Positions 1,639-60,371 of a stretch of DNA of 64,000 bases are shown here, in pieces. The stretch lies in assembly GCA_965112155.1 (NCBI GenBank), contig OZ218098.1. One strand, given 5' to 3'. The stretch's first letter is position 1. The number at the start of each line of letters is the position of its first letter. Both the position numbers and the translations under genes were made by a program. The notes beneath the pieces were generated by a model that did no database searches, had not been told where the DNA came from, and worked only from the letters and a program-made list of their open reading frames with translations. The stretch is from Podarcis liolepis (lineage: Eukaryota).

Positions 1639-3135
1639 TCTACAAAAGTGACAGATAGTGGAATAAACTTCTAGGTTGCTACGAATTCAAGTAACTGTGC
1701 TTTATCACCATCAAATCCTTGCTTGTTTTGCAAGATGGCTGCAGGCTATCAGAGCCCACACAAGCGATAAAATCAAAACAAGTTTTTGTTGTGCAAATTC
1801 TGCAACTCTTATTTGACTGTACTGATTCTTGCACTTACAGTACACAGCTGAAACAAATCAGAGATCCATGATGAATCATTGGGTGGGGGAAGAGGAAGAA
1901 AATGGGTAACTTCCATCTCCAATAGTGAAAGGCTTTCTGCTCATCAGTGCCTGTACTTCAGCAATTTAGCACTATGGCTGATATATTTTGCATGTGCTGT
2001 TATTTGCACAGCTCCTTGCAGGAGGCTACAATACACACCTGTGCACAAACAAATTTCAGGGTCCAGTAATAAAGAAATCCAGTCTCCAACTGACCACCCC
2101 TGGCCTCAGACAAGGGAGGGAAAGGGCCACCTCTTTCCAGTTCGCCCCTTGTCCTCCAGCACTTGGTGTGAAGTCATTTGGACGTTGCCCCCCCCCCCAT
2201 TGACACAAGTGCAATGGTACTCTCAGGCACCCCACAAAGCACCCTTGGTTTCAGTCTGGATCAGCAACTGCTGAGTGGCACGATTCATTTCAATAGGAGC
2301 TTTCAGTGAAATACAAGTTGCAAGTATCACCTGAGCAATGGAGCTGTGGCTGGCCAATGCAATTTTTGTGCTGTGATTGGCCAACTTGCATTTTTGGTTG
2401 CAAGTTCCATTGCTAGCTGCCTTTGCTGCCCACTTCCATTTTGGATGGCTTGTTACGTCCATCAACCTCCCTCATGTGGTCTAGCCTTCCACGGTGCCAC
2501 AGGTAGGCTTACTGTCATACAGGGTCTCAAGCCTATATACGCCTCATAGCTTAAATCATCCTTGGAGGAGTGATTGATTAGAATTCAAGAAGGCAGCTTT
2601 CCTCCTGTCCTTTTAATCATTCTCCCCAGATATTTCAAGTGATCAGAATCCTTAAAATCCATCTGTGCAAGCTGGGTAGGTGGGAAAAAAGACTTTGGAA
2701 ATGTGCACCTCACTGAGCCCTCGGGGACATCAGTAACTGTGGCAATCCCTCAGCCTTTTTTTTTAAAAAAAGGTCTGCATACCTGAGAGCAGAGTGTATT
2801 CTTGAAGGCCATTACAACAATACAGGAGAAACCTGGAGTTACTTACAGAAAAAGAAAGCACCAACCATTTAATCTAATTATGTGCTGTTTTGCCTATAAG
2901 TAAGGCCCTACAGGACATGATGCACATCTGTGAATGGTTCAGATTGCAGGCAGCAGGGCTAGCGCTACCATGAGCCTTGCTGAGGCAGCTTCTTCAAGCC
3001 ACATTCTACAAATTGCTGGGAGAGGCTTCATTTCAGCCAATACTTATTATGACTGCACCCTAAAAGCCATTTTGCAGCATCAGGCTTCAGCTACAAAATA
3101 ATAATAGAAACTACCTAGGAAAATGTGTCTTTCCC

Positions 3136-20181: not shown

Positions 20182-20457
20182 TGTTGTTGTTTAGTCGTTT
20201 AGTCGTGTCCGACTCTGGACCAGAGCACACCAAGCACTCCTGTCTTCCCCCGCCTCCCGCAGTTTGGTCAAACTCATGCTGGTAGCTTCGAGAACACTGT
20301 CCAACCATCTCGTCCTCTGTCGTCCCCTTCTCCTTGTGCCCTCAATCCTTCCCAACATCAGGGTCATGAGGTGGCCAAAGTATTGGAGCCTTAGCTTCAG
20401 GATCTGTCCTTCCAGTGAGCACTCAGGGCTAATTTCCTTTAGTATGGATAGAATTGA
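20182..20457 (-). mobile_element. BovB (RTE clade) LINE 3' fragment
   Basis: ORF SILKEISPECSLEGQILKLRLQYFGHLM..GRQRTRWLDSV..SRTRLND and (CAA)n tail; small internal deletions relative to the 59990 copy. Confidence 0.95.
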
Positions 20458-23400
20458 TTCAAAAGTCCCCCCTCCCCTGGTTTCAGTGAACACATTGAGA
20501 GGGATACAGAACTGCAACTTCTGGCCCCACCCTCAGCAGGTATGGCTCTTCCAGGTGTTCCTGGCCTCTACACATTTTCTTTCTAAAAGAGGACCTTACT
20601 TACATAGAATTGTATGAACGTAGGATCCTCCAGAATATTGGTGTGTGTGTCCAGTTCGGATTGCCTGTCACATGGGCAGCTGTACATGAAGGCAACTATA
20701 TACATGTTGGCTCCCCCTTCATATATTCCGTTGAATGTATGGTGGTAAGTGAAGACATAGCTGGCAAAGACATGCATTTGAGCCAGGGGGCCATAGACCT
20801 CCTTTCACTTCCACACATTCAGTAAAGTGAGCTTCGCTGCCTAAAACTAAGGTTAAGCCTACTAAATAGACTTAGAAGAAAGTCTCATATAAAGACTGTA
20901 CCCTTTATATTCTTAAACAGAAATATGATATATTCAGTGTCTGCATATTGCTCTATTTTGATAACAGATTGGTTTCCTACATTGTGAAACTTTCAGGAAT
21001 AATGAATTAGATTCCTAGTAATCCATGAGACTTCTAAATATAATAATTGGGGGGCGTGATATATATTTCATTTTCTTTAGCTTTCTTGTCTGAGAGTTTA
21101 AGGTTAATTGGGGTCATGTTTTCATGTTTCCCCACAGCCAGGAGGCTAGAACCCTATCTTTTAAATTAAATTGAGGACTTTTTTATATTCATATCATTTC
21201 AGGAGCTAGAGATGGGGTGGGGAAGAAAGAGACTATTCCTTATTGTGAGCCTGTTGATAAAATCATTGGTAAATTGTCTCATTTTGGACAGATATACTCT
21301 TCATTTTTATCAGTTTGTTCTTGATACAATGCATGTTTACATATATCTAAATCAAAATACACAAGTTACATTTCAGTTAAATTCACTAATTGCAAATGAA
21401 ATAAATGGCTAAACAGAGTGCAAAGTTCCTTTTAAAAATATGCCATTTTAACACTCAGGTTTTGTGCACGGACTAGTTAGGAAAAATAAAGCCTGGTTTC
21501 CCCCAACAATGACCCAAACTGACACAAACATAATTGTACTCAAGCTATGGAGATTCTCAGAAAATTAACCTGTGTTCTCAAATATAACTGCTTTCTGGAG
21601 AGGATAATTGCAATAGATGGGGACGTTTCTATTTTAAAGTATTCTTTGACCACTATTATTGGAAAGGCCACTGGAAAATTGGATACCATTCAAATAACAC
21701 TGCGGAACAGTGATGAACAAACTCTGCTACCACTTTTGCTGATGCACTGCAGGGAGCTGTATTCCTGAAGCGCTGTCCTACTCTCCTTCCAAAACCATTT
21801 GCTCTGGGGGCACCGTTACGACAGTGCTAAAGACATGTGCTTTACAATATGATGCAGAGTATTGCATCCTTACATTTATATCCATAATGTAATCCAATAT
21901 GGCATACATGTGGTTCTAAGGAACTCATCAGATCGAGAGCTGCTCAGTCTCAAGAAGGTGGGGACCTCATGCACCTGCAGGCCATATCCTGGTTGCATCA
22001 TACACCTTCGTTTCTTATTCCCCTTCTATGCCCTCTTCTCAAAAGCATTCCACAGCTGAAGTGCATTGCATCAAATGTTCAAAAACAGAACACCCCTCTT
22101 CCAAGTATTAGTCTTGTAATGCCAATGGGTGCTGCTGTTGTGATGAACTCAGGTTGCAGCAGGAGGTTTGTGGGGACCACTCTGCAGAGCTACATGTGTG
22201 TGAAGAATGGTGTGTATGTGCAGAACAGTCGGTGCAACTCCCATTCAATGAAGCTGTTGTCTGTGCATGCGCAATGCGGGACTGAAATGTCACCTCAGCT
22301 TATCCGAGGCTTATGTTTTCAAATCAGAAGCTGGCTTGAGGAAAAACACATCAAAGCAGTATTTTGCATGAAAATACAGGATACCCATGGATTGTAGTTA
22401 ACGTCGTGCATATGCAGCTTCATATACCAGCGGTGGGATTGCACTGGACCCGGAGTAAATGGTAATGTGCACATAGCCTCAGTGTCTGCATATCTCTAAC
22501 GCAGGCTGTTTCTGTCTGCCAAGATGAGCAAGATGAGCAAGCCAAAGGGCTATTTACAAGCAGCTGAATTTTTGGCAAATAGTTATTCAAGAGCAGTGAC
22601 CACTCACAAGGAAATGAAAATGACAGGGTGATGCTTCAAGCGCCCTGCTACAGCATGAGAAAACACAGATCATTTGAAAGTGCAGTGAACAATCACTTGC
22701 ATTGGATAGTGCTCACAGCATATGCACACACCCTACTTGCAATAAGCACACATGTACACATTTAATGAGGTGGTTTATGTGGAACGGCAGCCTTTTTAAT
22801 ATGTTTTCTCAAGCTGCTTGTACAAATAGAAATACTTGTTATTATAAAGGATTGAGGCTGCATCAAAATGCCCTTATTTGCAGGCCTCTCTTGAAATATA
22901 TGGTGGGATGGCAAACTGGGGGTGGGTATCATCCCTCTTTTAACCAGCAAGAAACCATAGTAGGTACAGGAAGCATTTCCCTCACTCCAATTAGGCTTCA
23001 TATATCATCACATAGGCGTATCTCAGCAAAAGCCAAATCTGAGTGAGGGCAGGAAACATGCTGCTTTTTGTAAAATAGCAGCAGCAACAATAAAATCAAT
23101 ATTTTTTGTCCAGCAGAGAATGCAACCCTGCTTCTGCCAGGACTATAAGCAAGTAGTGAAAATGGTTAACAAGGGTGGCAATTGTATGAAATCTTTCATA
23201 CAACATGAAAATCTTTCTTCCAAACCAAAAAGAAAAAGAAGAAAAAGAAAAAGCTTGCTAGCAAGCTTCTGTCTCAGCCCTTCAAAGAATTCGATAGTTC
23301 AAAACTGGTAAAATGTTCTGTTACCTTCCTTTCTCCTAGTACTTACATATTTTACACTGGAAGCCTTTTGAAATAATGGTGAAAGTAACTAGGGCATTGA

Positions 23401-26100: not shown

Positions 26101-26115
26101 TCATTCATAAGGTAG

Positions 26116-26331
26116 AGATAGGTAGCCGTGTTGGTCTGCCATAGTCAAAATTAAAAAAATCCTTCCAGTAGCACCTTAAAGACCAACTAAGTTAGTTCTT
26201 GGTATGAGCTTTCGTGTGCATGCGCACTTCTGAAGTATATCTGAAGAAGTGTGCATGCACACGAAAGCTCATACCAAGAACTAACTTAGTTGGTCTTTAA
26301 GGTGCTACTGGAAGGATTTTTTTTAATTTTT
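26116..26331. mobile_element. Penelope-like element: inverted pair of pseudo-LTR fragments with 13-bp TSD
   Basis: 26147-26231 is the near-perfect reverse complement of about 26245-26330; flanked by attcataaggtag at 26103-26115 and 26332-26344; same sequence as 37178-37280. Confidence 0.93.
26238..26273 (+). ncRNA. Minimal type I hammerhead ribozyme motif (Penelope-associated)
   Basis: tat CTGAAGA a gtgtg-catg-cacac GAAA gc TC^ata; CUGANGA and GAAA..UH cores; predicted cleavage after 26270. Confidence 0.8.
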
Positions 26332-26479
26332 ATTCATAAGGTAGTCACAGACAAAACAGCTCTGAAATATATTCAGAGTCGAGAGTGGATTTCATGCTCT
26401 TTATTTATTCAGCTCATAGTGGTGAGGAAGAATGGAAGTTCCCCCAGAATGTCTGCTTTATATGGTACATTATTTACAC

Positions 26480-36670: not shown

Positions 36671-36774
36671 TTATGTTGTTGGTGGTAGTTTTGATGACTT
36701 TAGTTTTTGTGATGTATTCTGCTCCTGTCACTTTACGTGTGATATGGCCATTTGTGGTGGGTGCTTTAGATGAG

Positions 36775-36843
36775 TTTCCTGCAATGCAAGGGGTTGGACT
36801 AGATGACCCCTGGGGGTACCAACTCTACAATTCTATGATTCTA
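36775..36843 (+). mobile_element. CR1-type 3' tail (CR1 or CR1-tailed SINE)
   Basis: ttcctgcaatgcaaggggttggactagatgacc..caactctacaattctatgattcta. Confidence 0.8.
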
Positions 36844-37242
36844 CAGTGCAAGAAGCTTCCCAGAGGGTGCTGTGTAGCCAAATGGAAGGATATGAATTGC
36901 AAAGCAGAATAAAAGCAGGCTTGTATCTGACTGATTAACACTTGGAGGAGACCCAGGCTGGATCTAGACACATCAAAAAAGTATTTCAGAAAAACGTGTT
37001 GTAAACTTTATTATGTCCCCACTGGAAAGTTAGTTAAATTAACTTAGTTGGTTAATTTAATCAGATTAGAAAGAGACATTCTTGAGGATCCTTTGTTTTT
37101 GGCATTGCCTGCAGACGGTGAAAACTGTCCTTAGTTTTGAAAGCAGGGCAAAAGGGAGCTCACCTACTCCTACTTTGAATCAAAATAAAATAAAAAAATT
37201 CCTTCCAGTAGCACCTTAAGAGACCAACTAAGTTAGTTATTG

Positions 37243-37280
37243 GTATGAGCTTTCGTGTGCATGCACACTTCTTCAGATAC
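37243..37280 (-). ncRNA. Minimal type I hammerhead ribozyme motif
   Basis: Minus: gtat CTGAAGA a gtgtg-catg-cacac GAAA gc TC^atac; stem I gtat/atac; predicted cleavage between 37247 and 37246. Confidence 0.85.
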
Positions 37281-37303
37281 ACTGAAACAGAAGTCACCAG
37301 ACC

Positions 37304-37314
37304 CTTATATATAG
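37304..37314 (-). promoter_or_regulatory. TATA box of the Penelope pLTR
   Basis: Minus CTATATATAAG about 30 nt upstream of the ribozyme; ACCAAT about 100 nt further upstream (37416-37411). Confidence 0.5.
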
Positions 37315-37460
37315 TGAGAGGGTGGGGAGGCGTATTACTCAGAAGGGTGGTGGGAATGGGTGATTGCCTGATAGGTGTGGTAAACCTGTTGATGACTGTT
37401 AACAACTGCAATTGGTCTTACAGGAAAAAGCAAGGGGTGAGATGGCTAAAAATAGCTTTA

Positions 37461-37754
37461 TCATGTATAATGAGATAAGAATCCAATGTCTCTATTCAGA
37501 CCAGGTCTCTCCATGGTTTTAAGTTTGGTAATAAGTTGCAATTCAGCAACTTCTCTTTCCAGTCTATTTCTGAAATTCTTTTGTAATAAGACAGCTACTT
37601 TGATATCTTGTATAGAATGTCCTGGGAGACTGAAGTGTTCTCCTACTGGTTTCTCTGTCTTGTGATTCCTGATATCAGATTTATGTCCATTTACCCTCTG
37701 GCGTAGCGTTTGGCCTGTTTGTCCAATATAGAGAGCTGAAGGGCACTGTTGGCA
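37461..37754 (-). pseudogene. Penelope GIY-YIG endonuclease domain, C-terminal 97 aa (truncated, no start codon)
   Basis: CQQCPSALYIGQTGQTLRQRVNGHKSDIRNHKTEKPVGEHFSLPGHSIQDIKVAVLLQKNFRNRLEREVAELQLITKLKTMERPGLNRDIGFLSHYT*: CxxC, YIG, conserved R, H..H, E and GLN motifs; no internal stop. Confidence 0.93.
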
Positions 37755-38916
37755 TACTTTGTTGCTGAAGGACCCACAATAACTTGGAACCCATTCTGAC
37801 AGCGACTTTAAAGCCTTGGCTTCATTACCAACCTCTGGCAGAAAAAGTAACTACCGTAGCTAAGAAAGAAAGAACACATTTTGCATGTTTATTTTTGTGC
37901 TAGGGCTCTAATGCTCCTCTCTCTTAAAATAGATCTAGTTTAATCAAAAGAGTGGGATATGCTGGCCCTTGGGTATTTGGAGATTGCTTTCTTGCTTGGT
38001 TCATGTTTATCAAAGGAGCTGCAGGCTCAGTTATTTTAGCTAGGATTTAAAATATTGCAGGGCAAGGGCAGGACGTCACTGGGCTTGAGAGAAGTTCCAG
38101 CCACAGTTTGTTCTCCAAAGTCCAGAATAGTCTGAGTAAAATTCATGGTCGTGGCCGTGAATATCCCAGTCACATCAACAAAGTACTGGTTTAGATGACC
38201 GAAGAGTAGCTTGTGTGCTTTAACAGGCATACGTGTGTGAGCTCATAGTTGACTTGCAGCAAATAAATAAATAAATCTTATCCTTAAGATCATGTCATCA
38301 AATAATGTAATATTTTGTTTTCAGGGCTTAGAAATTGACAGGCCTTAGCAACAGCCTCACTCTTTGTGCACAGTGTGATACTGGGCAACCATGGAAAATT
38401 ATGTGTTAAATCATGTGTGTGAAGGTGTGAACAGAGGCAACATATCTATCATTTAAATGTGCAGAAGCTTTCCCCATGTAATCTCATACCATGCAAAAAG
38501 CCAGATAACATATCCTGCATGCAGAGCCTGAATGTGCAAAGTATGTACACTGAACGTGCAAAGTATGTGCATTGGTAAACTATGGAGATTGGAAGCGAGG
38601 GCTGCACAATAACATTCCCATCTCCACACATTACGGTAATTATCCGTGATATTTCTAACATTTAAATTGCACTGCTGATCAAAAGAAAATAAGGCTTTCC
38701 ATTTAACCTATAAAACATAGTTAAAAGAAAAAGAATTAGAAAAAGAGCAATCCAAGTAAAGTTTAGTAATAGTATGTCCTATTCAATTCAAAATGACGAA
38801 GTATGTGGCTAGTCCCACTACATTCAATGGGGCTTAAACCCAGGACTGCAAACCAAAGTATGTAATTTTGCGTGTATATTTTCCGGTGTTCATATCAGAC
38901 TGTGATTTTCCAATTA

Positions 38917-43800: not shown

Positions 43801-44343
43801 AGACTGTAAACATTTTGTGGGAGGGATTCAAGTGTATACTACAACTTAGGCTGGCATTGAAGTGCTATTTTGCCCCAGAATACTTCCACTTTAGGAAAGA
43901 AAGAAAAAACCCTCAGTCATTTTGCAGATTGGAAAGTGATGGCGAAATTCATTGAAAAAGTACCGGGTGGATGATTAAGAGGAAAAACATGTAAACACCC
44001 TGCACGGACATAAAGATGAATGCAGGATGAATGCTCACTGTCATATAACCACCCCATAAACAAATCAAACGCATGGCCAAGACAGACCTGGCATAATGTA
44101 ACCACTTTTTAAGCTTTGTGCAAGCAAATCAGGATGAATCATGAATAGATAGGTCATCTGAAGGAGTCCCTAGAGAGCACAAGACTGAAGAAGGCTCCCT
44201 TAAAATTCATGTCATGTTACCATATGCTTTGTCAGGACTGTGCCAGAGGAATATAAGAATATAGCTGAATTGTCACAATGTTTTCCTGTGAATGATTCCG
44301 CTAGTGCCAGAAACTAGGGCCTGTATCTAACACTCCCATTACA

Positions 44344-44442
44344 AAATAAAAAAAATCCTTCCAGTAGCACCTTAAAGACCAACTAAGTTAGTTCTAGGTA
44401 TGAGCTTTCGTGTGCATGCACACTTCTTCAGATACATCTGTA
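44344..44442 (-). mobile_element. Solo Penelope pLTR fragment (99 bp) with 12-bp TSD
   Basis: Near-identical to 37182-37281; flanked by actcccattaca at 44332-44343 and 44443-44454. Confidence 0.93.
44398..44435 (-). ncRNA. Minimal type I hammerhead ribozyme motif
   Basis: Identical to 37243-37280: gtatCTGAAGAagtgtgcatgcacacGAAAgcTC^atac on the minus strand. Confidence 0.85.
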
Positions 44443-46192
44443 ACTCCCATTACACTTATGCAAGAGACTTGTGACAGTTCCCTGCAGGCTCCACCCACGT
44501 GCACCCTCAAAATCATCTCCAGAGGGCATTGAGGGACCCTCTAGCGGAGATTTTGGATGTGCACAGACGGAAGAGTTCTGCTGCACCAGTGTGACTCTGC
44601 TAGTGCTGCTTTCTGTACAACTCTTGGGTATGTATAGTTTCTGGTTAGACATGGTTTATTTCCTGCCACTTAGGATGACACCTGCCTTTTACAGCAGTTA
44701 AAACAAAAACCTTCAACTATGATCCTAACAATCTTCTTTCTCCAACCCCCTGTACCTTCACAGCCCCCACTGCAGCAGTACACTACAAGAGAAGATATCC
44801 ATAAATCAGTCAGAGTTGTGGAACTAGAGCCATGCTCACTGTCTGCCAGTAGAGAAACATGACTATTATGGCCAGAATCACTTTGTAGCAATTAGAACCT
44901 TCCTCTCCAAGGCCTACTTGACTTGATAAATGGTTTCTTTTGCAATACTAGATTGTGAAAGTTATCTTAGAAAAAGCCAAATTGAAGTAACGGCGGCGGC
45001 AGGCGGGGTGAGGGATTCCTAGGCACAAAGCTCTCAGCAGCAGAAGCCTTGTCAGCATTTCAGCTACTCAGTTTAACAAGGATTTCCATTTTCTCTCATC
45101 TGTTTTCCTTCACCTCAGTCTCCTTTGCAGCTTCCTTTGCTCTTGCTTACTCTTATATAACTTTACAAAAATACTACTAAAATGGAAGCAATAAGATTTA
45201 TAACTTCTCAGAAATGGGTTTTTTTCACATCAACCATCTGCATATGCAATAATTGGAGAAGTGAGCTGGTGATGTGGCAGAAGCTTGTCCTTTTAGGAAG
45301 ATGTTTGACCTATTTTGAATCCAGTGCAAATACAAGCAAACATACCACATTTTTCTCAAACCAACCTCATTCAGTTGTAATTGCTGGAGTACACTATTTA
45401 AGTTGCCATCAGTATTAACACCCCAACTAAACGTTGATATTTTGATCTCATGGCTTTTTTTACAACATATCAGAATTAAAATTAGGGGTTTCATAATGCA
45501 ATACTGCACTAAAATAATTGAATATCAAAACTTGAATGCTTGAGAACTGAATATCAAAACTGCTCTGCCCCATCTTTCCTCAAAATGACAGCCGCAATCA
45601 TTAGTGCTAGTGCCCTTGCACTGTAGCGGTTTTACATACTAGATGTTTTATTTGCTCTGTAATATATATAATGAGCATTTCATTTGGATTATAAAAAAAA
45701 AATGACAAATGAATAACGGCTTATCGATTAGGCCTCCACAGCAGAAGTCTGTAATCATTCTGCTTTCCAAGCTTTCAGGCCTACAGAACAGGAGGTTAAA
45801 AATGGTTTAATTAGAATGTGGGAAAGTATCCCCTTCAATCAACATCTGGTAACAATGAAGATAAAGGGTCTAGAGCAGAAATGTCTAATGGCTTGCTATT
45901 GGAAATGTTAAGTGATGAATGATTCCAGCAGTTGTTTCTCAATCACTCCCTCAAGGTTAATATTAAGCAATTTTGTTTGGTTTCAAACCCTTATTGAAAC
46001 CATCTACAAGGCAATGACTTTAAAAACAACAGCAGCATTTCATTTGAAAGGGAATAAGGGAAAACATTTATCAATGGCTCTTTTTGAACATAACATTAAA
46101 TCAAGTTTAGCTTTCTATTTAGAACCTGCACTGGCCCCAGGTTCAAATGCTGCCCCTACCCACTTTTAAGGCTGCAATACTATGGCCCCTGG

Positions 46193-58960: not shown

Positions 58961-59989
58961 AACCAGAATGCCATACTGCATTTGTTGATGTACTTAAACT
59001 CACACAAGTGCCTTCTATTATTTCAAGTCTAGGAACAAGCCTTTATCACTTCCCATAAATATTGCACAAGGATCGTTTCTCTGAACCACTAAAGCGAATG
59101 GGTTCGGCAATATGTGTGTTTTTCATTGCATATACCCACTGCCAAGAATGGAGAAGGGGAAGGGGATACATGACATTCTTCATTTATAGAAGACGTTGTC
59201 TAAACCAGATTATAAGTAGAATGTTAATTGCTATTAGAGTTAAATATGCCATTTAATTTATCCAAATGCCACTAACAAGGCAAATAAAAATAATGAGCAC
59301 AGCCATGAAAAGAAAACAGATAATAGCCACGGTGCATATTACTTACAAATCCTATAGACAAGAAACATGACATTTCCATTTACCATGAGTAATCCATTTA
59401 TCACGAGTAATGCATAAGGTTTTAGGGCAGAAGTATTGATAATTAGGATTATATATTCTAATGTGATTTGTTCACTTCTAAGGAATGGCTGTTCATTGAA
59501 TGTAAAACAGGAATACAGAAGCTGGAATCAAATGTGCATCTAAAGTACTGAAACAAGTCCACAAACTTCATTGACTCCATTTTCTTTCCGAGCAGCAAAG
59601 AAATAACAACAAGCTGGTGGCTTTATACATTTAAGCAAATAAATGTACATAGTGGACTTCTCAAAAGTGGATTTTCTTCAGGCAACAAATGCACACAACC
59701 CCTTTTGAGAGCAAGAGTTCCCCCACCAAAATGTCTCTCTCTTAATAGTCCATTATTCCCACCTAAAATAATAATATTGAATCTTCATCATGTGATATGG
59801 AAATGAATTAGTAATACAGCGGCATCTATGTTTAGGACTTTATTAAATATGAGAGGACATGTTGCAGCCCCAGGAGTCTTACAATTACGATTAAATGACT
59901 CAAGGGAGCCAACAGAGCAATGTAGTGAAACAAAGGGAAATAGTGAAAGAGTGTGCTATTATGTGCATTTAGACTTAGTTACAGTATGG

Positions 59990-60371
59990 CCAAAGAACTG
60001 ATGCTTTTGAATTATGGTGCTGGAGGAGACTCTTGAGAGTCCCATGGACTGCAAGAAGATCAAACCTATCCATTCTGAAGGAAATCAGCCCTGAGTGCTC
60101 ACTGGAAGGACAGATCCTGAAGCTGAGGCTCCAATACTTTGGCCTCATGAGAAGAGAAGACTCCCTGGAAAAGACCCTGATGTTGGGAAAGATGGAGGGC
60201 ACAAGGAGAAGGGGACGACAGAGGATGAGATGGTTGGAAAGTGTTCTCAAAGCTACTAACATGAGTTTGACCAAACTGCAGGAGGCAATGGAAGACAGAA
60301 GTGCCTGGCGTGCTCTGGTCCATGGAGTCACGAAGAGTCGGACACGACTAAACGACTAAACAACAACAACA
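59990..60371 (+). mobile_element. BovB (RTE clade) LINE 3' fragment with 9-bp TSD
   Basis: DAFELWCWRRLLRVPWTARRSNLSILKEISPECSLEG..HGVTKSRTRLND*, (CAA)n tail, flanked by acagtatgg at 59981-59989 and 60372-60380. Confidence 0.97.

Follow-up and report, generated by a model that had tools for sequence, protein, structure and literature searches.

The element at positions 37178-37754 of the window, the 64,000-nucleotide stretch of Podarcis liolepis contig OZ218098.1 analyzed here, is very probably (roughly 90%) a 5'-truncated copy of a Neptune-type Penelope-like element (PLE), keeping the last 97 nuclease codons and one pseudo-LTR (pLTR). The copy is probably dead, and its insertion probably goes back to an older burst that preceded the separation of related species. 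Intact reverse transcriptase (RT)-nuclease frames survive in younger sister subfamilies. The original prediction of an endonuclease (EN)-bearing PLE with a minimal hammerhead in its pLTR was right about the class of element, and the predicted youth of this particular copy did not hold. The features located in the window, with strand where one applies, are as follows.

37178-37754, minus strand: Penelope-like (Neptune-type) insertion of 577 bases, 5'-truncated and tail-less, made up of the end of the open reading frame (ORF) and one pLTR
37461-37754, minus strand: C-terminal part of the RT-EN ORF (97 codons plus stop), without a start codon, covering the GIY-YIG nuclease minus its first strand
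37755-37761: 5'-junction copy of a 7-bp direct repeat that is probably a shortened target-site duplication
37171-37177: 7-bp direct repeat at the 3' junction, abutting the element exactly
37411-37415, minus strand: the CCAAT of the original prediction, present in the old subfamily only
37363-37367, minus strand: conserved proximal CCAAT site, ~85 nt before the putative transcription start, reading GCAAT in this copy alone
37304-37313, minus strand: TATA box, TATATATAAG in 20/29 old and TATATAGAAG in 49/51 young copies
37279-37285, minus strand: initiator-like TCAGTGT at the putative transcription start, the motif being kept in 23/29 old and 49/51 young copies
37243-37280, minus strand: minimal type-I hammerhead ribozyme motif, predicted to cut after 37247
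37178-37200, minus strand: T-rich 3' end, which belongs to the tail-less type found in the family
26110-26334: two family stubs arranged head to head, of which one has a tail and the other lacks it, with a 13-bp duplication
44343-44444, minus strand: tail-less family stub, preceded by a 9-base inverted tail-end piece, with a 12-bp duplication

Translation of 37754-37461 on the minus strand gives 97 codons followed by TGA without interruption, in agreement with the start-less, stop-free frame and the motifs first described. The nuclease residues are C1xxC4, YIG at 9-11, R20, H24, H40, E66/E68/E71, and GLN at 85-87, and the 97 residues are 65% identical to turtle protein P0005. At the nucleotide level, the element matches bases 2439-3015 of the natural full-length unit L062 with 89% identity and the best-scoring other places in the genome with 93-97%. 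The profile check proposed for the nuclease returned a Pfam GIY-YIG match (E 7e-4), which at 20.3 bits stays under the cut-off of 22.6 because the copy begins at the first Cys, past the strand that reads IVY in full-length copies. Since RT, start codon, and first nuclease strand are all missing, the element would be unable to encode a working protein. It is extremely improbable that the frame represents a domesticated nuclease or zinc-finger exon: read from stop to stop it does reach 129 codons, extending into the flank, but it lacks an upstream Met, a start codon, and the domain's first strand, the changes look neutral (over few sites), and open frames are common in its age class. The five in-frame differences of the element comprise two silent and three amino-acid changing ones.

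The 7-bp repeat (tactttg) initially reported around the element is present at both junctions; its length is short against the 12-13 bp usual in the family. Junctions were sampled from the first 100 of the 15,614 exact genome matches to a 30-base piece of the family 3' end (the first 4.5 Mb of C1), picked regardless of 5' ends; the exact-match requirement biases the sample toward younger copies. Direct repeats of at least 11 bp were found at 54 of 72 insertions and at 1 of 600 mismatched controls, with a modal length of 12-13 bp (41/72). A 7-bp repeat would arise by chance in about 2% of cases in a position-bound control, and TACTTTG occurs at five other places within 36-39 kb. The element's repeat is likely a real but trimmed target-site duplication, and a near-repeat ending in AGTA in the right flank makes microhomology joining possible. 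A longer hidden duplication or an inverted tail piece was searched for on the 5' side of the element, and none was found. Two further observations concern the surroundings. Positions 37755-37767 (plus) and 38185-38173 (minus) form a 13-base inverted match with one mismatch, 430 bases apart, probably by chance. The end of a very high-copy repeat lies at 36761-36842 (minus), 340 bases from the element, with a depth of about 3e5 in public runs; it is possibly a CR1-like 3' end.

Within the pLTR, the CCAAT, TATA box, and hammerhead originally noted were located at 37415-37411, 37311-37304 (TATATAAG in the element), and 37280-37243. The letters adjacent to the first of these read ACCAA in 25/29 old copies and ACCTA in 49/51 young copies. 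The proximal CCAAT (37367-37363) is kept in 27/29 old and 49/51 young copies, and position 37367 shows the other letter in nearly all depth from public runs. The hammerhead is composed of stem I (GUAU/AUAC), the core CUGAAGA (C3 = 37276), an extra A, stem II (GUGUGCAUGCACAC), and GAAA-GC-UC (H17 = 37247), with the core kept in all 51 young and in 23/29 old copies. By inspection, it carries the minimal type-I features given in PMC4209133: CUGANGA/GAAA/UH, an extra base between 9 and 10.1, a G10.1-C11.1 pair, palindromic 15.2-16.2, and a short helix I. An Rfam scan of the sequence returned no hammerhead family at E <= 1, and none of the folding z-scores of the region (-0.66, 0.29, and 0.09) was significant. 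Helix II is a perfect 14-base palindrome, with a predicted pairing between two RNAs of -25 kcal/mol, and stems I and II are predicted to form alone, not within 98 bases of context. The element's lone hammerhead, lacking helix III, is predicted to need a partner RNA or a protein to cut; hammerheads with a short helix III likely cleave as dimers, as stated in a review (PMC6765202).

These motifs raise the question of whether the solo pLTR acts as a working promoter or a self-cleaving RNA affecting the host locus, or as a seed of short non-autonomous copies. The TATA box, the initiator-like motif, and the hammerhead are all intact, and the element has been retained in several species. No RNA run was listed as covering the locus, which weighs in neither direction. 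However, such a role is very improbable: the conserved proximal CCAAT is mutated in this element alone, a longer RNA from it is predicted to lose the hammerhead stems, and no daughter copy nearer than 3.6% appeared among the scored copies (best 40 of 2,794). Moreover, the element has no tail region, and the Anolis template required the first 172 nt of the ORF according to PMC11167929.

The age of the element was assessed in a tree of 82 rows, comprising the element and all fetched copies spanning the 577 bases, with six duplicate loci omitted. Copies were drawn from searches of the 1.57-Gb genome, the old set by similarity to the element (best 40 of 2,794 candidates) and the young set by protein similarity (150 of 6,033), so that the gap between old and young may be overstated and the clusters may be the ends of one continuum. 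One long-branch row (L032) was excluded from both groups. The 51 young rows split off with 100/100 support on a branch of 0.068, with short end branches and a bootstrap not fully settled. The element lies outside this clade, within a star of 31 rows; its divergence is 3.6-6.4% against the 29 nearest kin and 8.0-10.2% against the young rows. From the majority letters of the old copies it differs by 1.8%, a figure biased low by the similarity-based choice, and the median for old copies is 3.5%. Old and young majority letters are separated by 10 silent codon changes and 3 that alter an amino acid, a ratio that, on sequence grounds, would be as expected for a source lineage under selection.

The presence of the insertion at orthologous sites was examined in contigs from four public runs (organisms A, B, C, and E, from two studies) labelled as other species. 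At the 3' junction, flank contigs at single depth cross the boundary in C and E, with 39 and 34 letters inside the element; the contig of B extends 21 letters, and the listing has none for A. At the 5' junction, contigs of all four runs reach 29 letters across, two short of the 31-letter rule. No joint skipping the element was present among the 15 joints listed, of 101 in all. The flank of organism E shows the greatest difference from the window, 12 letters in 635. Because the flank contigs of other species carry the element's junctions, the insertion likely predates the split of these species, and the element was likely inserted in the older, star-like burst.

The original prediction had viewed the element as a young insertion of a currently active subfamily. 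The frame is open, the hammerhead is intact, and only six letters of the element are private, in the sense of being absent from all 29 old copies. The open frame had been taken as a sign of youth, but it says little on age because 14 of the 29 old copies have retained one too. The element is distant from all 51 young copies and, in place of the identity within about 2% of intact copies expected of a member of an active subfamily, departs from the intact frames at 20-30 of 294 bases. Together with the contigs of other species, whose flanks differ by up to those 12 letters, these results largely refute a young insertion, which is very improbable. An ordinary older relic, one among many thousands of dead ends, is the likely description of this element.

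Near-identity had been described among three copies. The other family pieces in the window are three arms of 86-103 bases at two sites (26110-26334 and 44343-44444), each 94% identical to the element and without the nuclease frame, so that description is not confirmed. The stub at 44343-44444 begins at the putative transcription start. Rfam microRNA matches at 26162-26314 were rejected, being merely the fold-back of the head-to-head insertion. Elsewhere in the window, two short, mutually related frames lie at 20191-20617 and 59975-60359, presumably resembling the 3' end of an RTE/Bov-B-type LINE.

The expectation of a recently active family with full-length copies held for younger sister subfamilies and not for the element's own burst. 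A genome search for RT-EN copies with the N-terminal third of the ORF as query, in which the best 120 of 831 candidates were scored, identified at least 12 stop-free RT-EN frames of 921-938 codons at nine places. Eleven of the twelve were checked, the twelfth straddling two fetched stretches. All eleven run for 897 codons from the second ATG and carry DKG and RT motifs (YIDD among them), a zinc-finger-like C-x4-C-x2-C linker before the nuclease, and CCHH. Ten read GLNK and L062 reads GLNR. Among themselves, the ten differ at 0-13 of 2,694 bases, with no difference between two frames on different contigs (L164 on C1 and L165 on C8), and they differ from L062 at 67-73. In the two long frames scanned, Pfam returned RVT_1 (E 3e-12) and GIY-YIG, both above cut-off. 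Sister subfamilies of the element have thus likely been jumping very recently in this genome. Three loci in the L160-L170 set (e.g., C1:101.12 Mb, C3:23.28 Mb, and C4:88.61 Mb of G000) each hold two full-length stop-free frames, tandem or inverted, and these frames form a third subfamily about 2.5% from L062. An unrelated long frame (at least 729 codons, plus 302) lies immediately upstream of a near-full-length copy at L061:1-3118 (minus) and is probably another retroelement.

The classification of the family follows from these frames, judged by the description in PMC8557442. CCHH with two Cys between GIY and YIG is present, as are the catalytic R, H, E, and N. The linker is of the CX2-5CxxC type, which in that source marks Neptune or Nematis and excludes Penelope/Poseidon, whose lack of a zinc-finger linker is not shared here. 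Pseudo-LTRs formed from partial tandems with inverted truncated partners were found at L062, at L160-L172, and in the window at 26110-26334, and the tandem copies of L062 are 100% identical over 1,896 bases. By motif, the family is assigned as Neptune-type, and as a vertebrate element of this type it seems to have been active very recently, with at least 11 natural intact frames. Neptune elements are reported to be widespread in vertebrates (bioRxiv 10.64898/2026.07.22.740005). Among the 120 homologues listed, the closest named proteins are unannotated turtle proteins (P0005-P0017), with 65-69% identity over RT-EN against about 40-58% for the other matches listed; several of them are gene models fused to host domains. 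A PDB sequence search with the full ORF gave 0 matches.

The ends of family copies were studied in 101 arms (the 100 listed matches plus one neighbor). The short copies, 78 arms beginning no more than 125 bases upstream of the anchor, show a 5' pile-up: 41 begin in the six bases matching 37284-37279, 29-34 nt past the TATA box, and loose ends gather at 37280 in public run X11. Judged from sequence, the pile-up would mark the transcription start, with reverse transcription often running off the RNA 5' end. Other causes were rejected. A splice acceptor (TTCTGTTTCAG) behind the pile-up is at odds with the bases ahead of it, which vary from copy to copy; the hammerhead cut as template end fails since only 4 of the 78 short copies start within 3 bases of it; and fold-back as the sole cause fails because 10/21 short arms without a head-to-head partner start there too. 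A cap-derived extra G at the 5' ends was seen in few cases and was unconvincing.

Two classes of 3' end occur: tail-less ends lie at the T tract, and tailed ends lie 27-38 nt past the first ATG, the upper bound of 38 being set by the reference. Tails are present on 51 of the 101 arms. Among head-to-head pairs, 37 of 39 have a tail on one arm and none on the other (binomial p 1e-9 against one half); two of the 39 pairings span long distances and may be separate insertions. The first ATG reads ACG in 6/9 tailed old copies printed, so the second ATG, just past the tail, would be the likelier start. Separately, an inverted pair at L067:1785-5195 has both ends tailed and its flanks mirrored too, possibly a later inverted duplication, and short 3'-end tandem duplications within single insertions, with the two end regions close together, occur at L109:1516-1615 and L120:1535-1745.

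A tentative joint reading, which we regard as possible and somewhat on the doubtful side, is that every integration draws on both internal RT start sites of the leader RNA, each nicked strand using one of them, with the outcome that paired arms carry exactly one tail. Synthesis would usually run off the capped 5' end ~30 nt past the TATA box, as in the making of retroviral strong-stop DNA, rather than ending at the hammerhead cut. To yield longer copies, the element included, it would have to jump to a downstream pLTR or use a template that is tandem or circular. If true, the thousands of stubs of this family record how PLEs integrate, and the natural intact Neptune-type frames make the reading directly testable. 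Both the pile-up and the strictness of the one-tail rule are relevant to the way PLEs generate tandem and inverted copies and to the role of the hammerhead. No published statement of the start-site pile-up or of the one-tail count was found; subscription papers or the supplements of PMC11167929 (Fig. S1B, S2) may show it.

For the element itself, the following course may be proposed. An autonomous unit is a partial tandem: a truncated copy lying upstream provides the pLTR ahead of the 897-codon RT-GIY-YIG frame, the downstream unit being transcribed from the upstream pLTR (review PMC6765202). The RNA would begin about 30 nt past the TATA box, just ahead of the hammerhead. The nuclease probably nicks both strands about 12-13 bp apart, as suggested by the family duplications and by PMC11167929. 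In line with the same sources, reverse transcription may begin at either of two sites: the U-rich tract, which gives the tail-less end, or a site about 27-38 nt beyond the first ATG, which gives the tailed end. The element would have been made by target-primed reverse transcription from the tail-less site, its synthesis getting past the start site either through a jump or because the template was a tandem; its end is tail-less and the copy stops inside the nuclease domain. Its open frame would then be a leftover of modest age and not of selection. The element is of little weight in itself, and the family is of modest use.

Published accounts (PMC8557442, PMC3846280, and PMC4209133) already cover one-sided tails, inverted partners, pLTRs with TATA and initiator motifs, and minimal hammerheads. 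Neptune-clade EN+ PLEs (Craig et al. 2021, PMC8557442) resemble this family in the C-terminal GIY-YIG with CCHH, the CX2-5CxxC linker, partial-tandem pLTRs, an inverted 5'-truncated partner, and heavy 5' truncation. They also have a 30-40-bp tail at one end, the element itself being tail-less. Unlike them, this family has tightly 12-13-bp duplications and no evident microsatellite bias in its inspected flanks. The metazoan PLE hammerheads (Cervera and de la Pena 2014, PMC4209133) likewise lack helix III and have a G-C palindromic 15.2-16.2, the extra base, the 10.1-11.1 pair, and a helix I of 4 bp, whereas the perfect palindrome of helix II, with its predicted inter-RNA pairing, differs here. 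The Penelope pLTRs of Adineta vaga (PMC3846280) also combine a TATA box with an initiator-like motif and have an optional tail on one inverted pLTR, but their duplications are 8-10 bp and their copy number is low, in contrast to the 15,614 exact matches of this family. The Penelope of D. virilis has a TATA-less internal promoter (PMC2377424).

The closest experimental system is PAc, a Poseidon element of Anolis carolinensis (Frangieh et al. 2024, PMC11167929), a lizard EN+ element with a hammerhead in its pLTR and a tail delimited by two adjacent 3'-end classes. Its protein cuts both strands, RT starts at two internal sites delimiting the tail, hammerhead cleavage is not required, and templates do not end at the hammerhead cut, as in this family. 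However, PAc belongs to a clade without the zinc-finger linker that this family has, and its ORF starts within the hammerhead, whereas here the first ATG lies about 60 nt past the cut and the true start likely after the tail. In vitro, its start site was not seen to differ between strands, in contrast to this family, where the two arms use one site each in 37 of 39 pairs. Among the papers cited, to the extent they were available, this Poseidon protein is the sole full-length PLE protein reported active in vitro, and the present family offers natural intact frames of the Neptune type.
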